A model generated the notes under the pieces. It saw only the letters and a list, made by a program, of their open reading frames with translations, ran no database searches and was not told the DNA's origin. Positions 4,007 through 64,000 of a stretch of DNA of 64,000 bases are shown piece after piece (position 1 is the first letter of the stretch; the number at the start of each line of letters is the position of its first letter). Made by a program: the position numbers and the translations under genes. The stretch comes from a bacterium (lineage in GTDB: Bacteria; Patescibacteriota; Minisyncoccia; Phycocordibacterales; Phycocordibacteraceae): assembly GCA_037200965.1 (NCBI GenBank), contig JBBCGK010000001.1, positions 544,001 through 608,000 on the forward strand, given 5' to 3'.

Positions 4007-4705
4007 TCAAAGCGACAGCGCGAAACGCTCGAGCGCAAGCGTAAGATCGCTTCCGGTACGGCGGGAATCCTGGAGCAAGGAAATGAGTTTGAGCGAGAGT
4101 TCGCGCGCAGCACGCGGCGGATACGCCCTCCCGCCTCCTTTCGCGAGAATGTCGCGCGCCTTCCAGTGGAGGAGGCCGTGGAGCATCTCGGGAGCGTCGC
4201 CCTGGCGAAGCGCCCGCTCGATCTCAAGCCACAATTTCTCGCCGTCGCGGGCGGCAAGCGCGTTCGTAAGGTTGATGTTGAACCCGCGGGCGGGAGGGGC
4301 CTTCGGAAGGTCGAACGCATAATCTTTCGCGGCCCTGGCGATGATCTTCTTCGCCTTCGCCGCAAGAAGTTTCGGCGCCACTATCACGATCGCATTATCA
4401 GACGCGGCGAGCATGTCGAGCGCGGATGCGAACACATCCTTATCCTCCTCCTCTTCCTCGTCTTCCTCTTCGTCTTCCACCGCTTTCCTTTTTGTTTTCG
4501 CGAACGGATCGTCAAACAGCACGAGAAGTCGTTTTATAAAGAGCCCCCCGGACTGCGCGGCATCCTCAAGCACGCTTTCCGTGATGTCCTCCTTGGCGAT
4601 GCGCGCATACGCGAGCCCCGGTTCCTTCGCGCGCGCGGCCGCGACCCAGGCGAACGCCTTCTCGCGCACCTTGTCCGTATCTGAGCCGTGGAAAAGATAG
4701 ATCAT
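4007..4705 (-). CDS. holA: DNA polymerase III delta subunit-like protein
   Basis: N-terminus MIYLFHGSD... typical of delta subunit; acidic insert EDEEEDEEEEEDKD; start overlaps polA stop by 4 nt (operon). Confidence 0.5.
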   Translation of the reverse strand: MIYLFHGSDTDKVREKAFAWVAAARAKEPGLAYARIAKEDITESVLEDAAQSGGLFIKRLLVLFDDPFAKTKRKAVEDEEEDEEEEEDKDVFASALDMLAASDNAIVIVAPKLLAAKAKKIIARAAKDYAFDLPKAPPARGFNINLTNALAARDGEKLWLEIERALRQGDAPEMLHGLLHWKARDILAKGGGRAYPPRAARELSLKLISLLQDSRRTGSDLTLALERFALSL

Positions 4706-7122: not shown

Positions 7123-7588
7123 ACGTCAGTTTGCGTGCGCCGCTCTGAAGCGCTTCGAGCCGTATCGAGACCGTCGCGGGAGGCAGCGCGTCCGCGACCT
7201 TTTCCGGCCACTCAAGCACGACAAGGTTACCGGAGTCCCGCATAACCGCGTCGAACCCGAGAGGACCGAGCTCTGCGCCGCCTTCAAGACGGTACGCATC
7301 GATATGCACCAGGCGCTTGAACACCTGGTTCCCGGGTTCGTATATTTTTTCAAGCACGAACGTGGGGCTCGTAACCGATTCCTCGACTCCGAGCGCTTTG
7401 GCGAGCGCTTTCGTGAAGGCGGTCTTCCCCGCCCCGAGCTCTCCCGAGAGCGTGACGAGGGTCGCCCTATCCGCAAGCGGCCGGAGTTTCGCCCCGAGTT
7501 CCCAGGCTTCCCGTTCAAGGTCTTCGAGGGTCGCGAGAAGCTTCTCCATGGACTGATTGTACCAAGAGCGGCCTAAACGCGTTATCAT
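7115..7588 (-). CDS. tsaE: tRNA threonylcarbamoyladenosine biosynthesis protein TsaE
   Basis: LSGELGAGKTAFTKALAKALGV P-loop plus VTSPTFVL and HIDAYRL motifs; stop overlaps polA start by 8 nt. Confidence 0.8.
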   Translation of the reverse strand: MITRLGRSWYNQSMEKLLATLEDLEREAWELGAKLRPLADRATLVTLSGELGAGKTAFTKALAKALGVEESVTSPTFVLEKIYEPGNQVFKRLVHIDAYRLEGGAELGPLGFDAVMRDSGNLVVLEWPEKVADALPPATVSIRLEALQSGARKLTYG

Positions 7589-16372: not shown

Positions 16373-16388
16373 GAAGGAATAACCTTGC

Positions 16389-16457
16389 GCGAGTTGGTCG
16401 TCTAAGACGATTTTGGAACATGCCCTGGCACAGCGAGGTTCGAACCCCGACAACGGA
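16389..16457. repeat. GC-rich extragenic repeat family, copy A
   Basis: Contains CGAGTTGGTCGTCTAAGAC and CCCTGGCACAGCGAGGTTCGAACC blocks shared with copies at 16868, 18398 and 19601. Confidence 0.45.
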
Positions 16458-16554
16458 GCACGACATTGACAGTAGTAACATAGTTTAGTACAAGGATTAT
16501 AGGGTCTAGATTCTTCCGGCAGTTCCAATCTTCTGTCGCGCTCAGGAGGGCATC

Positions 16555-16806
16555 ATGTATTACTCTGAATCTTTGAGCCGCCTCGGCTTCAAGAAAGTTA
16601 CCGGGCCTGTGCCCTGTCTGCACCGGACGCATCGCGGCGTTTATACCACCGGAGAATATTTTGGCACGGTGTGGACCTGCGCCAGCGACGAAGACTATGC
16701 TCTGTGGATCAAGAAAGGAAATGGTGAGATTGGTCAGTATGGCTTTACGAAGGTCTCCAACCTTTCCGTGGATATAACAGGGCTTGAACCGGTTCCCTTG
16801 GAGTAA
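16555..16806 (+). CDS. hypothetical protein (83 aa), island cargo
   Basis: Good SD (AGGAGG 7 nt upstream of ATG); low-GC; no recognisable motif. Confidence 0.35.
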   Translation: MYYSESLSRLGFKKVTGPVPCLHRTHRGVYTTGEYFGTVWTCASDEDYALWIKKGNGEIGQYGFTKVSNLSVDITGLEPVPLE

Positions 16807-16867
16807 GGGAGCCGGTTTTTTGAACGTCTTCCACCAACCTGATTTGAATATTCTTCGTGAAAATGTC

Positions 16868-16975
16868 AGCTAGCCGTCCGGCACGAAGTTGGAGCCTTAG
16901 CTCAAGAAAAAACGTATATTTATTTTAACCCATAGCGACTCATGAAAGTTATGGGCCGACCGTCTCGAGCGCGCA
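16868..16975. repeat. GC-rich extragenic repeat family, copy D (two sub-blocks)
   Basis: CCGTCCGGCACGAAGTTGGAGCC and GGGCCGACCGTCTCGAGCGCGCAAGGG embedded in AT-rich spacer; shares motifs with copies A, B and C. Confidence 0.4.
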
Positions 16976-16987
16976 AGGGAAACTGTC

Positions 16988-18406
16988 TTACTCAACCCTT
17001 ATTAGCGGCGTTGCCCCGAAAGTAACCTTCTGTGGTATTCCGTCCTTTATATCGCTAAATGTAGCTATTTCCCCTCTCGAACTAAATCCGCTCCCTCCTT
17101 TTAATAGGAACTTACTTTCATCTATCGACTGAAGAATCGTTTTATTGCTACCAAATAGTGGAGAGCTTGTATTCATATCAAAAGAAACTAGCGTATCTTT
17201 TATCTTAACTACTACCTTGTCTTCTCCAGAATTCCGATAAATACCTTCGTATTTTATACCATCAACTTTATTTTCCGACGTGTAATCAGAATTATTTTCA
17301 GTAAGACTGTATATTGCTTGAAAAATGCTCTGGGCATATGCCCATACCGGAGCTTTTGAGGTATTTGCGAGCACAACAACACCAAGTTCATTCCCGTAAT
17401 CAATGGCAACCTTTGATACAAAACCTTTGAAGCCTCCGCCATGGCCATATACTTTTTTAGAACTAACGTCATACATTTCAATCCCTAAACAGTATTTATC
17501 CGTACTCCTGGTATAGAAATCAGGCTCTGTAACCATACTTTGTTTAGATTCATTCTTTAAAAGAATCTCTGGTGCCTTAAACGGGAAGGTGGCTATATAT
17601 CTTGCAAGATCAATAGCATTTGAAATAAAGCCAGTCGCTGGCGCATAGGCATTAGCAGAGTAATGCCCGTACTTTTCCCTTTCCTGACCTGGTATTTCTC
17701 GTCCAAGGCCATTAGCAAGACCTCCTATATCTTTTTTATAATCAGTGAAGGTTGAGACCATGTCTAGCCTATCTAAGATATTTGCTTGAATATATTCCTC
17801 ATAAGACAGGCCGCTTACAGCAGCAATAAGTTCGCCTAAAACCGCGAAGCCGTAATTGGAGTATTTGAACTGAGAAGATGGTTTAAAAACCAAAGCTTCG
17901 TCTAAAAGAAGCTGAAGCGTCGTGGGGAATTCACCTGTAAACCAATGGGGTGTAGTACCTTCGCTCCAAATACCAGACGTGTGAGACAGTAATTCGTTAA
18001 TTGTAATATCTTCTAATTTGCCGTTTTCATTCTCTCCTTTGAACCATGGGAGATACTTTGAGACTGAATCTGTGAGTTTGATCTTTTCTTCTTCTACGAG
18101 TTGAAAAACTGCAACCGATGTAAACATCTTTGAAACAGAACCAATGTGATATAGGGTGTTTTCACTAACTTCAATCTTTTTTTCTAGGTCAGCATATCCA
18201 AAACCCTTCTTATACAAAACTTCTCCTTTATAAATAATTGCAATTGAAACACCAAGCACTTTATCGTATTGCAGTCTTAAAGGAAGCCATACCTCCAATA
18301 GATGCGCGACTTCTTTGATTGCTGATTTAATGTCGATCTCCACAACTATAATTGTAGTACAAAAAATGAAGTACCACGAGCAGTACGATTGTTCTGCGCC
18401 TCTCAA
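16988..18406 (-). CDS. Beta-lactamase-family serine hydrolase (class C beta-lactamase / PBP4-like / esterase fold); probable true start near 18343 (GTG)
   Basis: S-x-x-K active-site motif SVSKMF after the YHIGS block; YxN-like and later motifs of the family; about 450 aa; markedly low GC; the listed 5' extension uses a TTG and overlaps repeat copy B. Confidence 0.7.
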   Translation of the reverse strand: MRGAEQSYCSWYFIFCTTIIVVEIDIKSAIKEVAHLLEVWLPLRLQYDKVLGVSIAIIYKGEVLYKKGFGYADLEKKIEVSENTLYHIGSVSKMFTSVAVFQLVEEEKIKLTDSVSKYLPWFKGENENGKLEDITINELLSHTSGIWSEGTTPHWFTGEFPTTLQLLLDEALVFKPSSQFKYSNYGFAVLGELIAAVSGLSYEEYIQANILDRLDMVSTFTDYKKDIGGLANGLGREIPGQEREKYGHYSANAYAPATGFISNAIDLARYIATFPFKAPEILLKNESKQSMVTEPDFYTRSTDKYCLGIEMYDVSSKKVYGHGGGFKGFVSKVAIDYGNELGVVVLANTSKAPVWAYAQSIFQAIYSLTENNSDYTSENKVDGIKYEGIYRNSGEDKVVVKIKDTLVSFDMNTSSPLFGSNKTILQSIDESKFLLKGGSGFSSRGEIATFSDIKDGIPQKVTFGATPLIRVE

Positions 18407-18460
18407 GCGCGAAACCCTGGCACGAGTTGGCTGGCCGCCTCGAGTTCGAACCGTATAGAG
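18398..18460. repeat. GC-rich extragenic repeat family, copy B
   Basis: CAAGCGCGAAACCCTGGCACGAGTTGGCTGGCCGCCTCGAGTTCGAACC; about 85% identical to copy C. Confidence 0.5.
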
Positions 18461-18528
18461 ACAAGTCCGGGTTAGTACGTTTGATGAGTTTCGAGAATAT
18501 AAAACGATGCGTCTCGTGCGGCGAGGAC

Positions 18529-18903
18529 TTAGTTACCAAATACTACTTCTACATTATTTCCATCTGGATCTAGTACAAATGCTCCGTAGTAGTTTTCGTG
18601 ATATTCAGACCTAATACCTGGTGTTCCGTTATCTCTTCCTCCCGCATCAAGAGCTAATTTATGGAACTCATCCACCTCCTGTCTTGATTGAGCTTTCCAA
18701 GCGATGTGTGCTGGACCACTTATGGGTGCTTCACCGGCAAAGAACGTATTTGTCTTACCATCCTTTCCGAAGCCAATAACACGAACATGATCTTCATATG
18801 TTTGATCAAAGTTCAGTGAATATCCAAGGGGAGAAAGCGCAGCAGAATAGAATCGAGCTGTAGCTGCAATGTCACTTACTTTAAAAGTTATATGGTCGAG
18901 CAT
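18529..18903 (-). CDS. VOC-family protein (glyoxalase / bleomycin-resistance / dioxygenase fold)
   Basis: MLDHITFKVSDIAATARFYSAALSPLGY N-terminal beta-alpha-beta-beta-beta module and second module ending YYGAFVLDPDGNNVEVV; low GC. Confidence 0.65.
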   Translation of the reverse strand: MLDHITFKVSDIAATARFYSAALSPLGYSLNFDQTYEDHVRVIGFGKDGKTNTFFAGEAPISGPAHIAWKAQSRQEVDEFHKLALDAGGRDNGTPGIRSEYHENYYGAFVLDPDGNNVEVVFGN

Positions 18904-18915
18904 ATATGAATTATA

Positions 18916-19566
18916 TCAGCGCGGTTCTTCTTCGGTTGCTGTAGGCTCATCTTGTACAGACGCCTGTTTAGCTGCAGGAAGTGCTCGGGCTCGACGGAAT
19001 TTATAAAATCCCTCCAGTGCTGAAATGACTGCATCGATTACTTCGTTTGCATCCTCTTTGGTTACTGGCGCCGCTAAATCATCTGGGTGCATAACGTCAT
19101 TACGGCCGAGTCGAGCAACTGTGCTATCTGCAAATTGATCTGCATCGATCGCATCTCCATTCTTTAGCAACTCCAATCTCTTTTTTAGGCTCTTTCCCGC
19201 ATCTGAAGGTGACTTTAAGAATGCATTTACAAGTGCATCAAGCATAATTCCCGCTAAGGCAACTGAACTTCTGTAATTGCCATTATTGAACTCGACATAC
19301 ATTTCACCGCAGATCTCGCGGTAATTCTCTGGGAGCCAAGATGGTACTTGATGAGTTGAAATTACTGGATAAACGAATTTTACTCTGTTTTTAAATCCTG
19401 GCTCATGTTCGACGACAAAAGCATGCCCTCCCGGACATTCAACTACGCAGACGGTTTGTCCTTCACGGAACTGGTGTTGCCAAACTTCTGCAAAATAGGA
19501 GTGCAGCCCACACCTAGGACAATTGCCACTCCATCTATTTCCGTCTGTCCATGTCATTTGAATCAT
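18916..19566 (-). CDS. Zn-ribbon protein with DUF4145-like C-terminal domain
   Basis: N-terminal CPRC...CVVECPGGH four-Cys/His cluster; C-terminal ALAGIMLDALVNAFLK...ARLGRNDVMHPDD resembles the DUF4145 helical core; ATG preceded by a TATAAT-like box (leaderless-like); low GC. Confidence 0.45.
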   Translation of the reverse strand: MIQMTWTDGNRWSGNCPRCGLHSYFAEVWQHQFREGQTVCVVECPGGHAFVVEHEPGFKNRVKFVYPVISTHQVPSWLPENYREICGEMYVEFNNGNYRSSVALAGIMLDALVNAFLKSPSDAGKSLKKRLELLKNGDAIDADQFADSTVARLGRNDVMHPDDLAAPVTKEDANEVIDAVISALEGFYKFRRARALPAAKQASVQDEPTATEEEPR

Positions 19567-19600
19567 ATTTTCATTATATCGCTTCTTGCGATTTTGCTAA

Positions 19601-19660
19601 GCGACGCCTCCCAAGCGCGAAACCCTAGCACGAGTTGGGTGGCCGTCTCAGACTCGAATA
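19601..19660. repeat. GC-rich extragenic repeat family, copy C
   Basis: CAAGCGCGAAACCCTAGCACGAGTTGGGTGGCCGTCTCAGACTCGAATAC; paralogous to copy B. Confidence 0.5.
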
Positions 19661-19669
19661 CTAAGCTTG

Positions 19670-19921
19670 TTATCGAATCCCCTTCACCGCCACCCCCGCC
19701 CCCCGGAGCGCATCCGTTATGGCCGCCTCTCGCAGATGCATTTCGGACTTAATCACAGGGGATACTTTAAGCGACACGGTCTCGTCCTCATAAGACACCT
19801 GGCTCGCCTTTATCGTAAGGCCAAGGACGCTGCTTATGGTCTCCGCGCACACCCTCCGCCTCTCGGACTGCCGGAGGCCCGGTACCGGGTGCTTGAGCAA
19901 TATGTCCGAGAGGGATTTCAT
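19670..19921 (-). CDS. small protein downstream of dnaN, tentatively DUF721/DciA-like
   Basis: 83-aa ORF separated from the dnaN stop by 10 nt on the same strand; position and N-terminal MKSLSDILLK... pattern reminiscent of DUF721 proteins encoded after dnaN; weak. Confidence 0.3.
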   Translation of the reverse strand: MKSLSDILLKHPVPGLRQSERRRVCAETISSVLGLTIKASQVSYEDETVSLKVSPVIKSEMHLREAAITDALRGAGVAVKGIR

Positions 19922-19931
19922 GGAGAGTCAG

Positions 19932-21032
19932 CTACTGATTCATCGGCATCACAAGATACAGGAACGACGCATCGCCGACACCCTTTATAACGAGCGGCCT
20001 TCCGACTCCCCCGGCAGAAAGCGTGACACTCTCCGCGCCTGAAAGCGCCACCGCAGCCTGAAGATAACGATGGTTGAAGGAAAGCTCGATATTCTCTCCT
20101 GTAAGACTCCCAGAAATGGTCTCGGAAGATTCTCCGACATCCGCATTCCTGGCCTGGAGCGAAATCTGCTTCTTCTCCTTATCAAACGCCATACGCACCT
20201 TCTGGAACGAGTCGGAGAAGATCGTGGTGCGCTTGAGCGCGGCATCAAGATCCCTCCGGAGCACGGTCGCTTCCGCCGAAAACGTCTTCGGGATGATCTG
20301 GCGATAGTCGGGATAGTTTCCGCTCACAAGCCTCGTGGTCACGAGACTCCCGCCCCACCCGATGGCGCACTGGTGCTCGTCGATCGAGAGCGTCACCGCC
20401 TCGTCCGGAAGCGTCTGTACGATATCCAGAGCATTCTTTGCGGGGATAAGGAGCGAGAATGAGGGGACGGAGCCTGGAAGCGAGGTGTGCTTCTCGGCAA
20501 GACGGAAGGAGTCCGTAGCGGCGGTAACGAGCGACCCTCCCTCGCTTGCGACAAGCACGCTCGCGAGCTCCGGGCGTATGGTCGAAGTGGAGGCGCAGGA
20601 AACGACCGAGTTGAGCGCTGTGCGAAGGAGGGTGCCCGGAATCTGGAACGTGCTCTTTGGGGACTCGGGAAACGGTATCGTCGGGAAATCCTCGTACGGC
20701 ACGGTCTTAAGGACGCCGCGGGACGTGCCGGAAGAAAGCACGACGGTATCCCCGGTCCGCTCGAGCGTCACGGACCCGTTCCCCTGAAGCGCACTCGCGA
20801 CTTGCTGGAGGAGGTTCGCGGGGAGCGCGACCACGCCCGGAGTCTTTATCTCCCCGTCCGCCTTGAGATCGACGCCGACTTCGAGATTTGTGGCACGGAA
20901 TTTGATGCCGTCATCCCCCGCAACAATCAGGATCGAAGAGAGCGCGGGAAGCGTCGCGGAGCCCCGCTGTGCGAATCGCGCCGCCGTATGCACTACTTCC
21001 GCGAGTCCTTTCTTTTCTAAAATAATAAGCAT
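19932..21032 (-). CDS. dnaN: DNA polymerase III beta sliding clamp
   Basis: 366 aa, three-domain beta-clamp pattern; N-terminus MLIILEKKGLAEVVHTAARFA...LSSILIVAGDDGIKFRATNLEVG; immediately downstream of dnaA. Confidence 0.9.
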   Translation of the reverse strand: MLIILEKKGLAEVVHTAARFAQRGSATLPALSSILIVAGDDGIKFRATNLEVGVDLKADGEIKTPGVVALPANLLQQVASALQGNGSVTLERTGDTVVLSSGTSRGVLKTVPYEDFPTIPFPESPKSTFQIPGTLLRTALNSVVSCASTSTIRPELASVLVASEGGSLVTAATDSFRLAEKHTSLPGSVPSFSLLIPAKNALDIVQTLPDEAVTLSIDEHQCAIGWGGSLVTTRLVSGNYPDYRQIIPKTFSAEATVLRRDLDAALKRTTIFSDSFQKVRMAFDKEKKQISLQARNADVGESSETISGSLTGENIELSFNHRYLQAAVALSGAESVTLSAGGVGRPLVIKGVGDASFLYLVMPMNQ

Positions 21033-43495: not shown

Positions 43496-44446
43496 TATCG
43501 CACTAACATATCGAACACTCTTGCAGTCGAGCATACGGCGTCTTGAGCTCGATGCCAAGGTGCGGCCGTTCGTGGTTGTATTCGCGCAGAAAGGCCTGAT
43601 ACTGGGCATTGAGGTCCTCCATTGAAGCGGGCTTTTTCATGAAGCGCCAGAAGAACTCCTCCTCGTCGGTGCGGAATGACCGCTCGATGACCGCGTTCTC
43701 ATTCGGGTTCGCCTTGTGGATGAAATGATGCTTCCAGCCGAGTTCCCCAGTCACGAAGGCGCGGAAGCGGCTCTGGAACTCAAGGCCGTTGTCGGTCTGC
43801 ACGAAATCCGGTACGAACGGCAGCGAAACCGTCCGCAGGGCCTCGATGGAGAAGTCCTGCACGAGCTCGGGGAAGATGACGCCAGCTTTGTATCGGCTCC
43901 AAATATCAATGACGGCATACAGATACAGGGTATGCGGGAGCCCCGACAGCTCGGGCGTCACGTACTTCACATCCATCTGAAGCTTCCCGGGCGCGGTCAC
44001 GTTCTTGAGATACATATGCGTGGTCTCCTGATATCTCGGCCGTCGGTATGACGCGCCTTCCAGTATATGACCTTTCGCTTTGAGGAAGCGATGGATGGTC
44101 GCCGGGTGCTCGGAGAGGCCGAGCAGCACTTTGAGCTTGCGCGCCCCGTATCCTTTCTCTTCGCGCAGGCGCAAGAGCGCCTCAGCCCGCTCTCCCGAGA
44201 GCGTCCTGCGGCGAAGACGCTTCGGTCTTGTCGACTTGCGGACAAGCTGCCGCGTCGAGAGCGCAAACCGGCTCCGGATGCTCCGGGCTCGCTTCTTCCA
44301 GAACACCACCGTGCCCGGAGATATGCCGAGTGTCCGTGCGGTTTCGCGCACCTTTCCTCCCGACTTCTTCAATTTCCTGATGATTTCCCTGGGTTCTTTG
44401 CGCATATCCTCCTTAGTATTAGGGAGTGTTCGATATGCAGTGCGAC
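43496..44446 (-). mobile_element. IS481-family-like insertion sequence (about 951 bp) with terminal inverted repeats and 5-bp target duplication
   Basis: IRs TCGCACTAACATATCGAACACTC (43498-43520) and reverse complement of 44423-44445 (21/23 identical); direct repeat CTTAA at 43491-43495 and 44447-44451; single DDE transposase inside. Confidence 0.7.
43503..44405 (-). CDS. DDE transposase (HTH + rve integrase core), IS481-like
   Basis: N-terminal HTH ETARTLGISPGTVVFWKK; DDE core DVKYV...LYLYAVIDIWSRY...VQTDNGLEFQS...ANPNENAVIERSF. Confidence 0.8.
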   Translation of the reverse strand: MRKEPREIIRKLKKSGGKVRETARTLGISPGTVVFWKKRARSIRSRFALSTRQLVRKSTRPKRLRRRTLSGERAEALLRLREEKGYGARKLKVLLGLSEHPATIHRFLKAKGHILEGASYRRPRYQETTHMYLKNVTAPGKLQMDVKYVTPELSGLPHTLYLYAVIDIWSRYKAGVIFPELVQDFSIEALRTVSLPFVPDFVQTDNGLEFQSRFRAFVTGELGWKHHFIHKANPNENAVIERSFRTDEEEFFWRFMKKPASMEDLNAQYQAFLREYNHERPHLGIELKTPYARLQECSIC

Positions 44447-51764: not shown

Positions 51765-52247
51765 GTGCCGATACCCTACCACATCTTGATTATTTATGCA
51801 AGGGTTGTATTGTAAGTGCTGGTTCGGCAGCACTGTTTTAACGGAGGAACTCATGCATAAGATAGTCGCTTCTTTTTGCGCCGACGGGCGGGAAATCCTG
51901 ACCCCCGAGGTCAGAAAGGAAGCTCGCACAATCGGGCGGGCGCTGAAGAAGAGAGCGCCCCTTACGGGCTACATGGTTGTGGCAACCGGGAAAGGGATTC
52001 GGACATTTTCAGTTCTCCATGTTCCGAACATTAACCGGCTCAGTCTCGAAGGGGGCGGGCGCGTGTCGGTTTGGTGGCGCTCCAGTCGCAACGATGCGGA
52101 TACCATGTTCAAGCAATTGCTCGGTCTGCCCGAGGTCAGCTGCTGGGTGCTGACACTCTGAGTGTTCGAACGCCAGACAATGACGACCCGCGGCTGGTGC
52201 CGCGGGTCGCTAATTATTGTGCGCACATCGGTGCTACACTTCCCCAT

Positions 52248-53168
52248 ATGAATGCCGAGCAGCTCAAGCGGCAATTTCTCGAATACATCGAAATCGAGCG
52301 AGGCCGGAGCGTGAAAACGGTCGAGAACTACGACCGCTACCTTTCGCGCTTTATCAAACAGGCGGATATAAAAGACCCTTCCGATATTACCGAACCGAAA
52401 ATCCGCGAATTCCGCATGTGGCTCAACCGCCAGTCGGGCACCGGACGGGACTCGATGAAGCGCCGCACCCAGAACTATTACCTCATCGCGCTCCGCGCAT
52501 TCCTCAAATACCTCCGGAGGCTCGAGATCCAGACCATAGCCCCCGAGCGCATCGAACTCGCGAAGGTGCCGGAGCGGCAGATCGACCTTATAACCTCGGC
52601 GGAGCTCAGTCGCCTTATAGACTCCCCTGCCGAGGCGCTCAAAACGGAAAAAGACCCGCACGTGCGCCGTACCCTCCTTCGCGACCGCGCAATCATGGAA
52701 CTTCTCTTCTCCACGGGCCTGCGTATCGCCGAGTTGTGTTCCCTCAATAACGATCTCGATCTTGGAAGGGACGAATTTTCCATACGAGGCAAAGGCGACA
52801 AAGTCCGCGTGGTATTCCTCTCCCCTGCCGCCAAGGAGGCGGTACGCGAATACCTCAAGGCTCGCGCTGATATGGAGGAGGCGCTCTTCGTCGACGGCCG
52901 CCCGAAGAAGCTCCACCGCATCACTCCCCGCGACGTGCAGCGGCACCTCAAGGCGTATGCCGCCCGGGCCGGTATCACGAGCAAAGTGTCTCCCCATACC
53001 CTTCGGCACGTCTTCGCGACTGATCTTCTAAGCAACGGCGCGGATATCAGAAGCGTCCAGCAGCTCCTCGGCCACGCCTCCATCATCACGACGCAGATCT
53101 ACACGCACGTTACCGACTCGCACTTGCGGGATGTGCATAAGAAGTTTCATAGCAAAAACCGCGAGTAG
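52248..53168 (+). CDS. XerC/XerD-type tyrosine site-specific recombinase (ATG 52248; upstream extension rejected)
   Basis: N-terminal SAM-like domain; catalytic R...K...HTLRH...R...IITTQIYTHV (box II with Tyr). Confidence 0.8.
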   Translation: MNAEQLKRQFLEYIEIERGRSVKTVENYDRYLSRFIKQADIKDPSDITEPKIREFRMWLNRQSGTGRDSMKRRTQNYYLIALRAFLKYLRRLEIQTIAPERIELAKVPERQIDLITSAELSRLIDSPAEALKTEKDPHVRRTLLRDRAIMELLFSTGLRIAELCSLNNDLDLGRDEFSIRGKGDKVRVVFLSPAAKEAVREYLKARADMEEALFVDGRPKKLHRITPRDVQRHLKAYAARAGITSKVSPHTLRHVFATDLLSNGADIRSVQQLLGHASIITTQIYTHVTDSHLRDVHKKFHSKNRE

Positions 53169-56424: not shown

Positions 56425-57894
56425 TTAACAAACGTGGTGTCTCTCGAGGATCTTCTGTAGTTCCGCCTCTTCCTCCGCTTCCCTCCTCTTCATGCCTGCG
56501 TCTCCGAGCTCTTTAAGTGCTTTGTCGCTAAGAGTGCTGAACTCTGCTATCTTCCCGTCCAAATACTCCAAGGAGTTCTTTTTTGGGTCCTCAAGCACCT
56601 CTTCAAGAAGTGCGTGAAGCATCCAACCTATCCTTGGCCCCGGTTGCACGTGTAACACTTCCATGATCCTCCTGCCGTCAGTTTTTAGCATAGCTACGGA
56701 TATAGGGTCCCTGAGGGCTTCGTCCACCATCGCTTTGTATTTACGGAAACGGAACGGCTGCTCCTTGGGCCTTCCGGTGCCTATACGGTCGCATATGCGC
56801 AGATTGAGCAAGTCCATGATGTTTTCCTGCCCCACGTTCCGAATCATTCTCCGTACGGCCGAGAGGGTTATCTGATCAGGGTCGGAGAAGAACATGTGCC
56901 AACGGACCAGTTTGGTGACCTTTTCGATGGTTTCACGTGGAAACTTAAGATCTTCAAGGGCCTTTTGTGTTACACGTGAACCAACCACCTCGTGTCCATG
57001 GAAGGTCCAGTCCTGCTTTTCCTCTGACCATCGACGGGTTTCCGGCTTAGATACGTCGTGGAACAGGGCAGCAAGGCGTATATCGAATTCCCAGCCCTTG
57101 TCTGCAGCGTGCTGCATGCTCCTCATCAGGTGGCCAAACACGTCATAGCTGTGTGCCTGGTTCTGGTCGATCCCTATACCGCGGGTTAAGTCGTGGGCGA
57201 TATAACTAAGTATTCCAAGCTGCTGTGCCAGCACAAGGGCCATCATGGGCTGGTCGGACTCAAGAATGCGGGTGAGCTCATCGCGTATGCGCTCCTTTGA
57301 AATATGCTGCAGGTTTGGGGCCTTTGCCTGGATAGCTGCAGCGGCATCGCCATCAAGTGCGAAACCTAGCTCCGCCACGAGCCGCACCGCACGCATAAGG
57401 CGCAAGGCGTCCTCTTCGAAGCGTAGAGCCGCCTCCCCCACCGTTCTGAGCACTTTGTCCTTTATGTCCTTTTGACCGCCGTACGGGTCAATTAGATGTC
57501 CTTTAGACTCATCAAGGGCTATGGCGTTGATCGTGAAATCGCGGCGCGCGAGGTCTTCGGTAAGGCTTTGGCCGAATTCGACCTTATCCGGCCGTCGTTT
57601 GTCGGTATAGGAGGATTCGGTGCGGTAGGGTGTAACCTCGATCACTTTAAGGCTCTCCTCGTCCGTTTCACGTAGAACACCAACGGTTCCAAAGTCGTTG
57701 GTGTAGTAGGAATCGGGGAATATACGCTGTATATCCTCAGGTTTTGCGTTGGTAGTGACATCCCAATCTTTCGGCTTACGGCCTATAAGAAGATCGCGTA
57801 CGCATCCGCCGACAAGATATGCTTCGAACCCTTCCTTGCGGAGTATTTCGGAAACCGAGGAAACTTCTTTTGAAATAGAGAAGTGCATAATCAA
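56425..57894 (-). CDS. cca: CCA-adding tRNA nucleotidyltransferase with HD domain
   Basis: Pol-beta NT motif GGCVRDLLIGRKPKDWDVTT; HD domain H...HD...D. Confidence 0.85.
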   Translation of the reverse strand: MIMHFSISKEVSSVSEILRKEGFEAYLVGGCVRDLLIGRKPKDWDVTTNAKPEDIQRIFPDSYYTNDFGTVGVLRETDEESLKVIEVTPYRTESSYTDKRRPDKVEFGQSLTEDLARRDFTINAIALDESKGHLIDPYGGQKDIKDKVLRTVGEAALRFEEDALRLMRAVRLVAELGFALDGDAAAAIQAKAPNLQHISKERIRDELTRILESDQPMMALVLAQQLGILSYIAHDLTRGIGIDQNQAHSYDVFGHLMRSMQHAADKGWEFDIRLAALFHDVSKPETRRWSEEKQDWTFHGHEVVGSRVTQKALEDLKFPRETIEKVTKLVRWHMFFSDPDQITLSAVRRMIRNVGQENIMDLLNLRICDRIGTGRPKEQPFRFRKYKAMVDEALRDPISVAMLKTDGRRIMEVLHVQPGPRIGWMLHALLEEVLEDPKKNSLEYLDGKIAEFSTLSDKALKELGDAGMKRREAEEEAELQKILERHHVC

Positions 57895-57955: not shown

Positions 57956-58027
57956 GCCCCTGTGGTGAAATGGATATCATTACAGACTTCGAATCTGTCG
58001 TTCCAAGTTCGAATCTTGGCGGGGGCA
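57956..58027 (+). tRNA. tRNA-Arg (anticodon TCG)
   Basis: Hand-folded: acceptor GCCCCTG/CGGGGGC, anticodon stem ACAGA/TCTGT loop CTTCGAA, T-arm CCAAG-TTCGAAT-CTTGG, discriminator A; 72 nt. Confidence 0.85.
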
Positions 58028-58036
58028 CAAAAAGAA

Positions 58037-59426: not shown

Positions 59427-60128
59427 ATGCGAAAGGATAAAGACAAAGCTTTTGAATTACGCAGGAATGGAAAGAGCTACAGAGAAATCAGGGGCGCCCT
59501 TAAGGTACCAATAAGCACCCTTTCTGGCTGGTTCAGTGAAATTGGATGGTCTAAGAAGATGGCCAGAGATTTAGCAGCAAAGGCCCAGATACAGCACACG
59601 GCCAGGATAATCGAACTCGACAGGATTCGGGGCGTTCATCTGGCTCGGATATACGAGGAAGCGAAGGAAGAAGCCCGGACAGACCTTGAGATTCTCAAAT
59701 ACAACCCCCTCTTTATAGCCGGGCTCATGCTCTATTGGGGCGAAGGAGACAAGACGACGAAAAGTCAGGTGCGGCTCGCGAATACCGACCCGGAATTAAT
59801 CAGACTCTTTGTCGTCTTCTTGAAGAACGTATGCAATATACCCGAGGAGAAAGTGTGGGTCTCCATCCTCACTTATCCGGATATAGACGATGAGGCGAAT
59901 CGGCGTTATTGGTCCCAAGCATCCGGGGTCCCGCTCGATAAGTTCCTCAAAAGCATCCTTATACAGGGCCGCCATAAGACGAAGCGTCTCGGACACGGCG
60001 TCTGCAGCATCTTCGTCTCAAGTACGTACCTGAAGGTGAAGATGATCGAGTGGCTGCGGTTGTTACCGCAGGAATTGATGAACTTGCAATATTATGAGAA
60101 TATAAAGCCCGAGGCGGACATGGTTTAG
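59427..60128 (+). CDS. HTH + LAGLIDADG-like homing-endonuclease-family protein
   Basis: N-terminal HTH KSYREIRGALKVPISTLSGWF; single LAGLIDADG-like motif LFIAGLMLYWGEGDK followed by beta-rich core; last 15 nt overlap tRNA-Gly(GCC). Confidence 0.4.
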   Translation: MRKDKDKAFELRRNGKSYREIRGALKVPISTLSGWFSEIGWSKKMARDLAAKAQIQHTARIIELDRIRGVHLARIYEEAKEEARTDLEILKYNPLFIAGLMLYWGEGDKTTKSQVRLANTDPELIRLFVVFLKNVCNIPEEKVWVSILTYPDIDDEANRRYWSQASGVPLDKFLKSILIQGRHKTKRLGHGVCSIFVSSTYLKVKMIEWLRLLPQELMNLQYYENIKPEADMV

Positions 60129-60184
60129 TGGTAAAACAGGATCTTGCCAAGATTCAGTCGGGGGTTCGATTCCCCCTGTCCGCA
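60114..60184 (+). tRNA. tRNA-Gly (anticodon GCC), CCA encoded (to 60187)
   Basis: Acceptor GCGGACA/TGTCCGC, anticodon stem GGATC/GATTC loop TTGCCAA, T-arm GGGGG-TTCGATT-CCCCC. Confidence 0.9.
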
Positions 60185-60197
60185 CCAGCTTCTTGAA

Positions 60198-60231
60198 GCG
60201 CAAAAACGGCCTTGAATGGCCGTTTTTGCGC
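60198..60231 (+). terminator. Intrinsic terminator after tRNA-Gly(GCC)
   Basis: GCGCAAAAACGGCC-TTGAAT-GGCCGTTTTTGCGC, 14-bp perfect stem plus T-tract. Confidence 0.6.
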
Positions 60232-60396
60232 TTCGGACAAAAGTGGATAAAGGTGTTAATACTGGGGATAAAGGACAATATTTGACGCTCTGTCCACCGC
60301 GATGGTCTGTAGAATTGCAAGCAAATAGGCCCTCATTCTTAAAGCCGTGAGGTCCTCTCGGAAAATGAAGAAAGGACATAAAGGTTTTAGGCGACC

Positions 60397-60434
60397 AAAA
60401 TGTAAAACACCCCTGACGGGGTGTTTTACATTTT
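60397..60434 (-). terminator. Intrinsic terminator downstream of tRNA-Pro (minus strand)
   Basis: AAAATGTAAAACACCCC-TGAC-GGGGTGTTTTACATTTT, 17-bp stem. Confidence 0.6.
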
Positions 60435-60436
60435 GG

Positions 60437-60507
60437 TCGGGGCGCCGGGAATCGAACCCGGTCATCTTGCTCCCAAAGCAAGCGTACTACCGGTATACGA
60501 CGCCCCG
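60437..60507 (-). tRNA. tRNA-Pro (anticodon TGG), CCA encoded
   Basis: C1:G72 acceptor pair typical of bacterial tRNA-Pro; anticodon stem CTTGC/GCAAG loop TTTGGGA (G37); T-arm CCGGG-TTCGATT-CCCGG. Confidence 0.85.
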
Positions 60508-60603
60508 AGTGCAAGCAGAGTAACACGGGCCCTTAACCCTTGCGACTTTTACATTCTCCGATCAGTGCGGAAAAGCCCCGTAAGTGGTATTCTCGGGAAC
60601 GAA

Positions 60604-60674
60604 GCGGGATTAGTTTAATGGTAGAACATCAGTTTTCCAAACTGATGGCGGGAGTTCGATTCTCCCATCCCGCA
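60604..60674 (+). tRNA. tRNA-Gly (anticodon TCC)
   Basis: Acceptor GCGGGAT/ATCCCGC, anticodon stem TCAGT/ACTGA loop TTTCCAA, T-arm GGGAG-TTCGATT-CTCCC. Confidence 0.9.
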
Positions 60675-60810
60675 CAGCGGTCAGAGACCCGTTTTTCGTC
60701 TGCGAGGCCTCGAAAATAGTTCGCAACCGCGAGGCCTGCCCGGTCGAGCTTTAGTGTTCCGCATCCGTTCCGTCTAAATTAAACCGACCCGGCAAGCTAT
60801 ACTTACCTCT

Positions 60811-61347
60811 ATGTCCCACGAGGTCCCGAAACTCAATCAGAGCGAATCTAAGGAAAAGCCGCCTGTTCTGTACCATGGAACAGCGAACGGTGATATCAAG
60901 GAGTTTGAACCACGTTCCGCGGCAGAAAGACCCGATGAAGAACCGGCGGTGTATGCATCTCCTGATCGTGAGATCGCCATTCAATCAATGGCGAATAAAT
61001 TCGTGACAAACGGCGGTATCGTAAATGGGCGTAAATTCGTATGTATTCCCATGACCCGTGAAGAATTTATAGAACAGGATCACGGTGGCACGGTGTATAG
61101 CTTCCCCAGCGATTCCTTCGAAATAAATAAAGGAATCGGACTTGGCGATAAGGAATGGGTTTCTAGAACTACTGTTAAACCCCGTGGGTTAGAGCGGTTC
61201 CCTTCGCTATTAGCAGCAATGCTCAAACAAGGAACCGAGGTTTATTTTATTAAACCCGAAATGGTCTCGGTAATTAGTAAAGCTCAAGATAGTGACCCTG
61301 AAGAATTAGAGAGGCTTCTTGGGGGTCTTGAACGGGCAGAGTCTTGA
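60811..61347 (+). CDS. hypothetical protein (178 aa), low GC
   Basis: ORF adjacent to tRNA cluster and recombinase; no motif. Confidence 0.3.
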   Translation: MSHEVPKLNQSESKEKPPVLYHGTANGDIKEFEPRSAAERPDEEPAVYASPDREIAIQSMANKFVTNGGIVNGRKFVCIPMTREEFIEQDHGGTVYSFPSDSFEINKGIGLGDKEWVSRTTVKPRGLERFPSLLAAMLKQGTEVYFIKPEMVSVISKAQDSDPEELERLLGGLERAES

Positions 61348-61478
61348 ATCGCGTCCGACCCCATCATTTTGACCTTTCCCAAATTCGCCGTGGAGCCTCG
61401 CGGTGCCACACATGCTGTGGTTTTCATCCGTCCACGCCCGTTCACGCACAAAAGCCCGACATTCGTCGGGCTTTTGTG

Positions 61479-62804
61479 CTAGTCGGCCAGCGTGATGATT
61501 CGGTCGTTGAGAATAAGCCGATCTCTGAGGTGCTCCAGCAGCTCCCGCTTTTCCTCTCTCGTGCCGTTCTTCAGCAGATACTTGGCATACTTGCGTATGT
61601 CCATCTCCTTGGCCTCGATGGTTTCTTTGGTGCCCTCCACCTCCGCCCGCAGCTTGTTGTATCGGGACACCTCCCGCTCAATGAGGTGTCGCGCCCCGAT
61701 CTCGTCAAGGGAGATGCGGTCTATCATGGTGGCGAGCTGGTCGAGTACTTTCTCCTCCCGCAGATACGGGTTCTTGCACTGGGTATCCTTGGCCCGGGAG
61801 CAGGAATAATACACATAGGAGACGGGCTCGCCGGTACTCAATATCTTCTGCTTCTCCTGTGCCGTTATGCCGCTCCCGCAGTACCCGCACAGCAGGAGCT
61901 TGGTGAAGTTCCATTCTTTGAAGCGGTGCTTGGGGCGGTTCTCCTCGGCGATCTTTTCCTGCACGGCTTGGAAGAGTTCCTGGGTGATAAGCGGCGTATG
62001 TTTGCCGGTATACCAGTTTCCCGAGCCTCTCGGATACTCGAACACGCCGCAATAGAAGGGGTTCTTGAGCATTTTGTATAGCGTCGAGAGATTCATGCTC
62101 TTGCCGATGCGCGAGGCGAACTGCACATCCCTCTTCAGCCACCCGTGTACCTTGCGGCCGCTCCAGCGCTCGATCCCGACTTTCTCGAAGACCTGTTTAA
62201 TGATTGGCGCTCTAATAGGGTCCACCAATATCTCGCAGCGGTGATCCTTCCGAGAATCGTTGAGGTATCCCGTGGGCGCGATGCCGGGCCACAGGCCCAT
62301 CTCGGCCCTTGCACGTAGCCCGCGCTTCACATTGATGCGCTTGTTATCGTTCTCAAGCTTCGCTTGGCTCCCAAGAATCATCAGCAAGAACTTCTCGTTC
62401 GGGTTGTTGCCGAACCGCTGCCCATATGTGCGTATGTCCACCAAGTGCCTGCTATCCATTAAGTCCACGATGCGGCCGAGGTCGCCTGCGTTGCGACTGA
62501 TGCGGTCCGGTGCCCAGGTTAAGATGCCGTTGAACTTTCCAGCCCTCAATTCGTCTACGATTTCATTGAATACCGGTCGCGCTCCGGCCTCCTTGGCCGA
62601 GTGCGACTCTCGCTTCACCTCGACAATCTCCAATTTCTCTTTCTCTGCGAGCGCCAACATCTCCTTGACCTGGCTCTCGATGCTCAAAACTTGCTGCTCC
62701 TCGCTCTCTGTACTTTTCCTCGCATACAAGCAGTACCGCACCGCCTGTACCTCCACCAAGGGAGGAGCCGCCCCAAATCCGCCCTGAATCATTGCTGTTT
62801 CCAT
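61479..62804 (-). CDS. Large serine recombinase (resolvase catalytic domain + recombinase domain + Zn ribbon)
   Basis: Catalytic Ser block [31 protein letters not shown], recombinase domain, CGYCGSG...[12 protein letters not shown] zinc ribbon, C-terminal coiled coil. Confidence 0.8.
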
Positions 62805-62902
62805 ACATTTGCCGTTATTGCTAACGGGTCAATGGATGACGCAACCCCTCGTGGGTGTCCAGCGAGGGGTTGTTGGTATCTAATGCGGAATTTAGTACCT
62901 TG

Positions 62903-63934
62903 TTATTTTCTCTTCCCTGGTTTTCTCACAGGCTCGGCGTGAGGGAACTTCTCAAAGTGATCGATGACGGCTTCCTCTTTTGCAACTTGTTCTGACGCAG
63001 TACGTTTGCGCTCTTCATCCTCCTTCTCGCGGCGAGTCACCGCTTCGCGCTCCTCATCTTCCCGAATACGTTCACGCTCCTTCGCCTCGATTTCCCCAAG
63101 AACCTCGGTTGCGATTTTAAGCTCGTGTTCGTCGCCAAATTTTCGTATGTGCTCAAGCGCATCCTGGGCATACTGCTCATCCAGTAAACTTAGATATAGA
63201 CGGAATTTCGCGGGATATTCTCGCAGGGAGGACTCAACTTCTTCGGCAGAGTAGAATTGGTCACCCAAGCGGTATTCACTCGGATGTTCGCGAATAAACG
63301 CCGCGACCTCTTCGATTCTTGCCTTCGGAATAAGAACACCCGAAGCGACCAGCCCGATTTCGTGGTATGTGCTGCCGTCCTGGAAATTCGCAGTCGGGAG
63401 ATCTAATGCTTTTGCGAGCGCCTCCTCTCGATCTTGGCGAATAGGGCCGTCCCTGCGAGGCAGAGCGGGGCGACGGCTCCATCCATCGCCGATGCTCTTA
63501 TCAAGAAAATCAAAAACAAGAAGCGCGTTTTCACCCAAGATCCCGCCGTCCTCATGTTCGGATGGAAAGAATCTATCGCGATTTTGCATGAGCCTTCCGT
63601 CAGGCAGGTCCTCACTGGATATGATCGTGAATTCTGGGAGGCCAAGCTCTTCGAGACTTCCTTCCTGCCGTAACAGGTCTATGAGAACATCGTGGTCACT
63701 TTTGCCTAAGTCCTTGCCGAGCGCATTTAACTCAAGATGTGTATTGTGCCGCTCAGAGTCTATGAGTTCCGCTTCCGTTTTCACTTCTGGGTCGGTGAGA
63801 GCGTGCGCGTTCTGCTTGCGAAATCGCTTAAGCTCCTTGAACTTGTCTTGATACGAACGAACAAGACGGCCATACTTTTTCTGAGCGGTTTCCTGTGATT
63901 CGGGCCGTGGGCCAGCACCTTCAAATCCGGACAT
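62903..63934 (-). CDS. hypothetical protein (343 aa), charged coiled-coil C-terminus
   Basis: ORF downstream of the serine recombinase on the same strand; no motif. Confidence 0.3.
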   Translation of the reverse strand: MSGFEGAGPRPESQETAQKKYGRLVRSYQDKFKELKRFRKQNAHALTDPEVKTEAELIDSERHNTHLELNALGKDLGKSDHDVLIDLLRQEGSLEELGLPEFTIISSEDLPDGRLMQNRDRFFPSEHEDGGILGENALLVFDFLDKSIGDGWSRRPALPRRDGPIRQDREEALAKALDLPTANFQDGSTYHEIGLVASGVLIPKARIEEVAAFIREHPSEYRLGDQFYSAEEVESSLREYPAKFRLYLSLLDEQYAQDALEHIRKFGDEHELKIATEVLGEIEAKERERIREDEEREAVTRREKEDEERKRTASEQVAKEEAVIDHFEKFPHAEPVRKPGKRK

Positions 63935-64000
63935 ATAGACATCATACTATGACAAATGAAAAGCCGTCCTCAAACGACTTTTCGTTAGAGAACGGCTTTG

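Follow-up and report, generated by a model that had tools for sequence, protein, structure and literature searches.

Near the end of a 64,000-nt stretch of patescibacterial DNA (positions 544,001 to 608,000 of contig JBBCGK010000001.1, assembly GCA_037200965.1; the whole stretch is called the window below), the gene of a large serine recombinase (LSR) points toward a tRNA-Gly(TCC) gene, and the question that this locus raises is whether the enzyme has placed a mobile element at the end of the tRNA gene. tRNA genes have long been held to be landing sites of tyrosine integrases. The initial annotation of the window proposed that an integrated element starts here and runs off the available sequence, and it treated integration at tRNA 3' ends as well established for serine and tyrosine integrases alike. 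For the tyrosine enzymes this is the case; for serine recombinases the literature gives it as rare or unknown (PMC4383910, PMC3218068).

Here we analyze the locus together with longer public contigs and with related loci from other genomes. It will be argued that a site-specific integrative element of 4,962 bp, inserted by its own LSR at the 3' end of tRNA-Gly(TCC), very probably occupies positions 60676-65637. The proposal of an element that leaves the window is thus borne out, both by an empty site in a related genome and by contigs that continue past the window end.

Methods

Positions beyond nt 64000 are given in extended coordinates, that is, in the window numbering carried on past its end, and were read from the public contigs L001, L084 and L085. 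The matching contigs were retrieved via exact-protein look-ups. L001 (a Logan contig from sample SRR28211700) covers window positions 60616-64000, i.e. 3,385 bp, with 0 mismatches and supplies 4,230 nt of extra sequence. Over 8.7-18.8 kb of the extended sequence, L082 and L084 (NCBI GCA_015655515.1) and L085 (from a second Logan sample) agree with it at 99.99-100%, and they continue farther out. tRNA genes were called with ARAGORN. The family survey used one genome per species and comprises 80 loci, with recombinases that are 49-95% identical to the window LSR.

The element and its target site

Judged by its sequence, the 441-aa protein is a member of the large serine recombinases, because all sequence-defined features of the class are present. 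The Pfam domains Resolvase (PF00239, 77 bits, residues 26-171), Recombinase (PF07508, 49 bits, residues 197-287) and Zn_ribbon_recom (PF13408, 37 bits, residues 300-360) follow one another, and the protein aligns with SPbeta SprA and the A118 integrase, both of solved structure, including the YxRxS catalytic block, where YARKS stands opposite YLRRS of SprA. The catalytic serine block and zinc ribbon that had been assigned to the protein are therefore correct. It is also homologous to the C-terminal domain of the A118 integrase (4kis), its best PHROG match is 'integrase' (229 bits), and its C-terminal 80 residues look helical and charged when the sequence is inspected by eye. Sequenced phage and plasmid LSRs are only 21-27% identical to it, and its relatives carry names such as Kaiserbacteria, Paceibacteria and Minisyncoccia, which places the host in the Patescibacteria. 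The best partial NCBIfam match is CcrB, with a score (104 bits against a cut-off of 900) so far below the cut-off that the protein is not a Ccr orthologue; for XisF, orthology is likewise far below the cut-off.

The far junction of the element, predicted to lie past nt 64000, was located 1,637 nt beyond this position. The non-coding sequence at 65257-65638 (extended) is 85-92% identical to stretches in three other loci (L002, L003 and L007), and the far ends of the four elements are alike through ...GTTCAGTACAGTGAGGGGGCAC, with all similarity lost beyond this point. A profile of this far-end block finds more ends, namely two in L009 and one in L015, and 8/8 far ends terminate in GRGGGGCAC. Seven elements could be delimited at both ends, with lengths of 3.9-9.9 kb. 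In 7/7 of these, attL reads tRNA...GCAC|AGCRGTCAG, and attR reads ...GCAC followed by unrelated DNA.

Evidence for the limits comes also from L003, which has an unoccupied tRNA-Gly(TCC) gene, identical to the window copy at 66/72 positions. It is followed by CA and then by TCTAGTGCTAGTTCAAGTGACCGAGGTGC, which is identical (29/29) to extended positions 65640-65668, just outside the far junction, and downstream of this match the synteny of L003 resumes at an MgsA-like gene (76%). Since the empty gene matches both flanks, the element is a 4,962-bp insertion at 60676-65637. The acceptor-strand differences between the L003 and window genes compensate each other, which means that the 3' end of the window tRNA-Gly(TCC) is native. 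The L003 site encodes CCA (GCACCA), whereas the occupied gene in the window reads GCACAG. At such a gene, integration would replace the encoded C75-A76, and the tRNA would consequently have to rely on 3' processing and a CCA-adding enzyme. A gene for the latter lies near the tRNA cluster, at 56425-57894.

In the closest relatives, the spacer between the tRNA and the LSR gene is ca 105 nt long and has a fixed layout: tRNA...GCAC, then AGCRGTCAG..., GCGAGGCCTCGA, the T-arm-like GTTCGCAACCGCGAGG and the LSR terminator hairpin. The motif after GCAC is identical behind Gly, Arg, Leu and Val tRNAs and adjoins the tRNA in 15 cases. As it is the same behind different tRNAs, it must be element DNA. The spacer in the window is interrupted by an insertion (Table 1), and other relatives have 0.3-4.6 kb of unrelated DNA at the same spacer position.

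The initial annotation had suggested a direct repeat of the 3' part of tRNA-Gly(TCC) downstream. With up to 3 mismatches allowed, neither the window nor the extension has a second copy of its 3' 20-mer, and the P' arm does not recur in the extension in direct or inverted orientation. The two junctions have only GCAC in common, which is what one would expect of a serine integrase.

Some other properties of the tRNA cluster can be noted here. The three genes are indeed close together, packed into 562 bp (60114-60675), with tRNA-Pro(TGG) on the minus strand. The strong terminators ascribed to each of them are present behind tRNA-Gly(GCC) (-34 kcal/mol, z -8.0) and tRNA-Pro(TGG) (-23.9 kcal/mol, z -7.0). 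The trailer of tRNA-Gly(TCC), on the other hand, folds no better than shuffled sequence (z -0.87), because the element has displaced the native trailer. The low GC content that had been pointed out applies to the 178-aa open reading frame (ORF; 0.467, compared to 0.560 for the window) and does not mark the whole element (0.537). From ca 53000 onward the value is already 0.516, and composition is thus uninformative about the element boundaries.

These results bear also on another possibility, namely that the element brought the tRNA gene with it, or that the insertion was made by the tyrosine recombinase at 52071-53168 or by an IS200-type transposase (IS, insertion sequence) beyond the window. 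Mobile elements sometimes bring tRNA genes, and a Phage_integrase-domain gene and a Y1 transposase gene are indeed nearby. However, synteny of the cluster holds in L007, and in part in L003 and L008, irrespective of which site is occupied, the homology between elements at different tRNAs begins exactly after GCAC and not within or before the tRNA, and the empty L003 site retains the tRNA, whose acceptor strands co-vary between the genomes. There is moreover no long direct repeat of the type that tyrosine integrases leave, and the IS200-type transposase gene belongs to a separate unit with its own hairpin ends. We consider this scenario extremely improbable.

Target use and mobility in the family

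The association with tRNA genes is a property of the whole family. In the 58 loci with enough sequence, the nearest tRNA gene within 5 kb downstream of the LSR gene is convergent in 46 and co-directional in 0, and any tRNA gene within 5 kb upstream is found in only 5/67 loci. In 14 loci, the tRNA 3' end is 104-132 nt from the LSR stop codon. As the search patterns were built from the recombinase protein alone, this association is not a selection artefact. The tRNA identities in the family include Gly-TCC/CCC/GCC, Arg-TCT/GCG/CCT, Leu-GAG, Val-TAC, several Ser, Gln and Met.

All 15 occupied tRNAs (Gly-TCC/CCC/GCC, Arg-TCT/GCG, Leu-GAG and Val-TAC) read GCAC|AGCRGTCAG-like at the junction. A GCAC end is thus present in 15/15 occupied tRNAs, compared to 16/33 unoccupied ones at the same loci (hypergeometric P = 2.7e-4), and tRNA ends in CGAC, CCAC or CCGC are never used within the subfamily of the window element. 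Two further tRNA genes of the window, tRNA-Lys(TTT) at 2197-2270 and tRNA-Arg(TCG) at 57956-58028, have GCAC ends followed by an A-rich trailer and a hairpin, and from their sequences look like unoccupied candidate attB sites for the element family.

Conservation of the recombinase at this position in relatives was part of what the initial annotation would have taken as a refutation, but its position was found to vary between them. The cluster Arg-TCG/Gly-GCC/Pro-TGG/Gly-TCC is common to the window and L007, with the element at Gly-TCC in both, and L006 also has it at Gly-TCC. In the partly syntenic L003 and L008 the element is at Gly-GCC, which in the window is unoccupied. The elements L002 and L003 are on one contig, with recombinases that are 97.7% identical and far ends that are 99% identical, and they are inserted at Arg-TCT and Gly-GCC, respectively. 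The window and L002 recombinases share 95% amino acid and 83% nucleotide identity, with backbone genes at ca 68% nucleotide identity, and these sequence comparisons indicate that the recombinase spreads horizontally and is under purifying selection. Within tandem arrays, L009 and L010 have attP-like joints without a tRNA that read P arm-GCAC-P' arm.

It is possible to write down the junctions that excision should produce. The circle (attP) junction is predicted to read CAGTGAGGGGGCACAGCGGTCAGAGACC, and the empty site in the same strain TCTCCCATCCCGCAC(AC or CA)TCTAGTGCTAGTTC. Several observations have to be set against the proposed insertion by a mobile element with its own integrase. The empty site comes from another species, and the two bases after GCAC differ (CA vs AC). 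Every contig of the window's strain retrieved by exact-protein look-ups of the flanking genes is occupied, at 99.99-100% identity. The excised-circle junction has 0 matches in viral contigs, and a single one, due to chance only, in metagenome contigs (L087). No recombination directionality factor, replication or transfer gene was recognized in the element by means of Pfam, PHROG, PADLOC and NCBIfam. Finally, the reconstructed attP has no more overall dyad symmetry than shuffled controls, and the host-side B' arms lack conservation, which is unusual for an LSR attB. The L087 match was rejected as a circle, as it lies inside an ORF of an unrelated high-GC contig without recombinase, tRNA or far-end block.

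With no excised circle found and all assemblies of the strain occupied, present-day activity is something that we infer. One could therefore imagine that the element is a fixed, immobile relic, whose recombinase is kept for another role (e.g. inversion or resolution), and that the adjacency to the tRNA is an old scar. The uniform occupancy of the independent assemblies would fit this, as would the lack of a detected attP or empty-attB junction and of a recognized directionality factor. We nevertheless find it unlikely, because the recombinase ORF is intact and, as seen in the comparison with L002, under purifying selection, near-identical elements occupy different tRNAs in one genome, occupancy varies between syntenic genomes, and the att arms are conserved to the base. 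A site-specific element inserted by its own LSR is thus the preferred interpretation.

Some related observations concern serine tRNAs. ARAGORN reports tRNA-Ser genes with the unusual anticodon ACT beside family recombinases in L027 (11409-11498), L029 (9394-9482), L046 (12769-12858) and L059 (11599-11687), and in L029 and L046 these are in tandem with tRNA-Ser(GCT). Another motif, GACAAYTTnGTATCGG..., is present directly 3' of many tRNA-Ser genes (L002 16782-, L009 17002-, L025/L027/L047/L054), in some cases without a recombinase in view. It probably represents the P' arm in a sister subfamily that is specific for Ser and has its junction after an encoded CCA.

Cargo and non-coding block

We now turn to the content of the element. 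The sizes given by the initial annotation for the three ORFs (178, 441 and 343 aa) are exact, and the 343-aa ORF is on the recombinase strand. The cargo ORFs have no homologues in the other 80 loci and match nothing in PHROGs, PADLOC or NCBIfam, and in Pfam there is only the weak DUF6886 match of the 178-aa ORF. For the 343-aa protein, one distant relative was found among 5.8 billion proteins. The cargo of related elements includes a SocA/Panacea antitoxin, a type IV secretion system (T4SS)-pilin-like protein, an IS256-type transposase, a TauD dioxygenase and a class I aminoacyl-tRNA synthetase. The parts that are conserved family-wide are the LSR, the spacer and the non-coding block, and the cargo varies. 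In L007, the 9.9-kb interval from attL to the far end contains (4496-7456) a 986-aa class I aminoacyl-tRNA synthetase, the TauD dioxygenase, a SAM hydroxide adenosyltransferase-like gene and the IS256-type transposase; this is either an unusually rich cargo or a set of host genes trapped between element ends.

Phage structural or conjugation genes, which had been suggested as something to look for downstream, are not found in the element. Its ORFs have no capsid, tail, portal or terminase match (PHROG, Pfam), and no relaxase, coupling protein or type IV secretion match (Pfam, NCBIfam; oriT was not searched for). For the window element, this gene content rules out a prophage as such. That it is a degraded prophage or a phage satellite, with a small size due to decay or to helper-phage packaging, is in our judgment quite unlikely. 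The 'integrase' PHROG match of the LSR is in line with such an origin, relatives with ca 60% identity are found in IMG/VR contigs, and the repeat-rich conserved non-coding block could be a packaging or replication signal. In one of these contigs (L088, 6906-11305) the recombinase, 60% identical, immediately follows genes for a ParB-methyltransferase fusion and a terminase-large-subunit-like protein (E 8.6e-31). However, the other ORFs of the window element match no PHROG, Pfam phage family, PADLOC or NCBIfam model, the seven delimited relatives measure only 3.9-9.9 kb and carry non-phage cargo, including a membrane protein, and sequenced phage integrases are at most 27% identical to the LSR. 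In L088 the recombinase is followed by a convergent tRNA-Ser(TGA), and some clade members may serve phage-like elements.

The non-coding block at ca 65000-65637 (L001 2594-3230) has a modular structure, rc(X) - 20-40 nt - X ATTT X ATTTT, in which X differs each time (GTAAC, GTTCG, GTCTC), and doublets of AGGCA and GTCTAAT also occur. One module of L009b has undergone a joint change of its two arms. Several copies of the T-arm-like and GYGAGGCC motifs are also present. A structured RNA in the block is not supported, with nothing matched in Rfam at E<=1 and an RNAalifold covariation term of ca 0. RNA-guided target choice was considered and discarded, as the L002 and L003 blocks are nearly identical while their target tRNAs differ. 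The block could represent operators, recombinase or recombination directionality factor (RDF) sites, an origin, or a packaging signal.

Proposed mechanism of target recognition

In the mechanism that we propose for the integration, the LSR would pair attP (...GTTCAGTACAGTGAGGGGGCAC|AGCGGTCAGAGACC...) with an attB consisting of the T-arm/acceptor end of the tRNA gene and its trailer. In attB the recombinase subunits would contact the T-arm/acceptor DNA of the tRNA gene, and in attP its mimic, with strand exchange through a 2-bp staggered cut within GCAC.

The P arm resembles a tRNA 3' end (GTTCAGTAC...GGGGGCAC vs GTTCGATTC...CCCGCAC). In L015 it matches the element's own tRNA at 15/25 positions (counted by hand), and the tRNA-Arg(TCG) of the window ends exactly in GGGGGCAC, as does the element's P arm. 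An inverted pair, GCCTCRC/GYGAGGC, is located 27-33 bp on each side of the GCAC centre and shows co-variation in L015 as well as at the tandem junction of L009. The centre of this conserved outer pair suggests, at the level of sequence, that CA is the crossover dinucleotide. With a left arm of attP that imitates a tRNA end, and an attB whose conserved part is the near-universal GTTCGAxTC...GCAC, closely related elements would be able to enter several different tRNA genes and to stack in tandem. This recognition model is a tentative one, because of the attP dyad symmetry that does not exceed the controls and the unconserved host arms.

One can take the model further and suppose a 'tRNA-generalist' integrase, for which one attB half-site is the near-universal tRNA T-arm and acceptor DNA, the attP left arm is its mimic, and the other host half-site is almost unconstrained. 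We regard this as a possibility worth keeping, albeit with somewhat less than even chances. One type of element would then enter many tRNA genes and stack on its own ends, leaving the tRNA unsplit, and the T-arm-like, GYGAGGCC and X-ATTT-X-ATTTT repeats of the non-coding block would be extra sites for the recombinase or a directionality factor.

Relation to other elements

It is instructive to compare the element with known systems. With SPbeta SprA/YokA, A118 Int and TP901-1 Int, it shares the Resolvase, Recombinase and zinc-ribbon architecture, the aligned catalytic block and a very short attL/attR core. The phage-type large serine integrases also include phiC31 and Bxb1. Unlike the phage LSRs, whose sites are protein-coding or intergenic, the present family targets the extreme 3' ends of tRNA genes, and of several tRNAs, with an unconserved B' arm and a 5-kb island as carrier. 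An IS607-type serine transposon was rejected, as the protein has the full LSR architecture and the targets are restricted to tRNA 3' ends.

For serine recombinases at tRNA genes, two systems can be compared. The AICEs (integrative conjugative elements from actinomycetes) of Mycobacterium include eight serine recombinases at a tRNA-Leu gene; such integration was called rare, with phiRSM cited as the only other case (PMC3218068). Like the present family, these AICEs (Ghinet et al. 2011) tie a Recombinase-domain serine integrase to a tRNA gene. Compared by description only, they differ in being actinomycete elements with tra and rep genes and a single tRNA-Leu target, whereas the present family is found in Patescibacteria, at many tRNAs, and with no transfer or replication genes found. 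For the filamentous Ralstonia phage phiRSM, integration by a serine recombinase at a tRNA-Ser 3' end with a 13-bp core was shown experimentally (PMC4471427). Its Int is of the small resolvase/invertase type without the Recombinase and zinc-ribbon domains, and phiRSM is an inovirus that uses one tRNA, with a core of 13 bp instead of the 4 bp observed here.

The Islander paper states that serine recombinases are not known to target tRNA genes (PMC4383910). The tyrosine-integrase islands (Islander/TIGER; PMC4383910, PMC12424338) are similar to the present family in several respects: the site at the tRNA 3' end, the tRNA-proximal integrase gene, the variable cargo, the tandem arrays and the preserved tRNA. 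Their enzyme is unrelated, however, and the tRNA 3' fragment that they bring takes the place of the original and leaves a direct repeat of ca 10-50 bp. In the present family the tRNA stays unsplit, with a repeat of 4 bp, and what resembles a tRNA in attP is a diverged mimic that ends up at the far junction.

A working analogy can also be drawn with the staphylococcal cassette chromosome (SCC) elements and their Ccr enzymes. These elements are LSR-driven islands with highly variable cargo, inserted at a conserved housekeeping gene's 3' end, and they can form tandem composites. They target rlmH and belong to another phylum, whereas the window element targets tRNA genes and has a single recombinase gene.

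In the literature on serine recombinases, tRNA and genomic islands, no description of this clade in Patescibacteria or the Candidate Phyla Radiation was found (subscription journals were outside the coverage). The element is thus a serine-integrase island of known type that is set apart by the target at the tRNA end, the 4-bp core, the tRNA-mimic arm and the use of multiple tRNAs, and its clade is apparently undescribed.

Features and genomic surroundings

The features of the tRNA cluster and the element are collected in Table 1.

Table 1. Coordinates of the tRNA genes and element features (window numbering; extended coordinates beyond nt 64000).
Feature	Position	Strand	Remarks
tRNA-Gly(GCC)	60114..60187	+	unoccupied; 3' end GCACCA; strong trailer hairpin; occupied counterpart in L003, L008
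tRNA-Pro(TGG)	60434..60507	-	3' end CGACCA, without GCAC; never occupied by the subfamily of the window element
tRNA-Gly(TCC)	60604..60675	+	integration target; gene intact through discriminator A (60674)
attL core GCAC	60672..60675	+	second copy (attR) at 65634-65637 (extended); crossover within or beside GCAC
Element part inside the window	60676..64000	.	remainder at 64001-65637 (extended)
P' arm and conserved spacer	60676..60738	+	starts AGCGGTCAGAGACC; 60676-60737 match relatives
Palindrome CGAGGCCTCGA	60703-60713	+	inside P' arm/spacer
T-arm-like motif GTTCGCAACCGCGAGGCC	60719-60736	+	overlapping 19-nt repeat copy at 60720-60738
Low-GC spacer insertion, ca 0.7 kb	60739..61440	+	approximate limits; remaining spacer 61441-61478 matches relatives
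178-aa ORF	60811-61347	+	inside spacer insertion; weak DUF6886 match
Terminator-like hairpin of 178-aa ORF	61398-61420	+	inside spacer insertion
Terminator hairpin	61447..61478	-	just past LSR stop codon; -27 kcal/mol, z -5.1
LSR, 441 aa	61479..62804	-	transcribed toward tRNA-Gly(TCC); catalytic Ser31 in YARKS; CxxC...CX7C zinc ribbon
343-aa orphan cargo ORF	62903..63934	-	in LSR operon; no family match
Terminator-like hairpin	63958..63983	-	between 94-aa and 343-aa ORFs
94-aa ORF	64020-64304 (extended)	-	past window end
Hydrophobic 154-aa ORF	64459-64923 (extended)	-	past window end
Conserved non-coding block, ca 700 nt	after 154-aa ORF (extended)		ends in P arm ...GTTCAGTACAGTGAGGGGGCAC

Beyond the non-coding block there follow, in outward order, a 253-aa ORF, a TrmB-family regulator, an IS200-type Y1 transposase, a 128-aa ORF, an MgsA-like AAA ATPase and a Fic protein. 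The block of 253-aa ORF and TrmB gene, outside the element (65707-67535 extended; L001 696-2460), is 86% identical at the nucleotide level and 91-96% at the amino acid level to L003 15473-17201, where it sits between the exonuclease III and CCA-enzyme genes. It looks horizontally moved, because the backbone genes are only ca 60% identical in amino acid sequence. After this block there is a degenerate second copy of the far end (...GCAGTTCACGACTGGGGTGGGGCAC, nhmmer E 1e-6 to 2e-5), possibly what is left of an older element from a tandem array that has decayed. The IS200/IS605-type Y1 transposase gene (143 aa, ca 67608-68158 extended; L001 73-623) lies ca 70 nt beyond this remnant, with hairpin-forming repeats of 27 nt on its two sides, ACCCCGGGGCAGAGCCCCGGGGTATTG and ACCCCGCGGCAGAGCCGCGGGGAATTG.

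On the other side of the cluster, a 233-aa ORF (59427-60128, +) with only a weak N-terminal helix-turn-helix (HTH) match overlaps the 5' end of tRNA-Gly(GCC) by 15 nt. Homologues of it adjoin tRNA genes in L007 (46% identical, Gly-GCC), L002 (31%, Val-TAC) and L019. The Logan contigs from SRR28211700 stop inside tRNA-Gly(TCC) (60616, L001) and tRNA-Pro (60490, L083). These breaks were considered as a sign of strain variation at the junction and dismissed, as tRNA sequence common to several organisms in the sample explains them equally, and they say nothing about excision.

In the remainder of the window, TrmB paralogues are scattered throughout, and the region 16001-20000, with ORFs at 16988-18406 and 18916-19566, has a GC content of 0.45-0.46 compared to ca 0.57 around it; this 4-kb stretch may be another island. 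An rve/HTH_Tnp_1 transposase (IS3-like) is encoded at 43503-44405 (-), and the Phage_integrase-domain tyrosine recombinase at 52071-53168 is on the plus strand and is possibly the host Xer. Neither has an adjoining tRNA.

Conclusions

The window locus and some 80 relatives show a whole LSR clade that is systematically linked to tRNA genes, with a base-precise junction at the discriminator, and in which close relatives make use of no fewer than seven tRNA species. It is widespread among the Patescibacteria, whose genomes are tiny and whose mobile elements have been described only poorly. Programs for island detection that demand a tRNA-fragment repeat or a tyrosine integrase will overlook such elements.

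The results also raise the mechanistic question of how an LSR copes with a non-conserved B' half-site. If the generalist model is true, it would represent a logic of LSR target recognition that has not been described before. Serine integrases work without host factors and are in standard use for genome engineering, and an enzyme that recognizes a feature of every bacterium's tRNA genes would have practical use. On the same condition, the present enzyme would be a candidate for integration without a landing pad in the genetically intractable Patescibacteria and in other bacteria.

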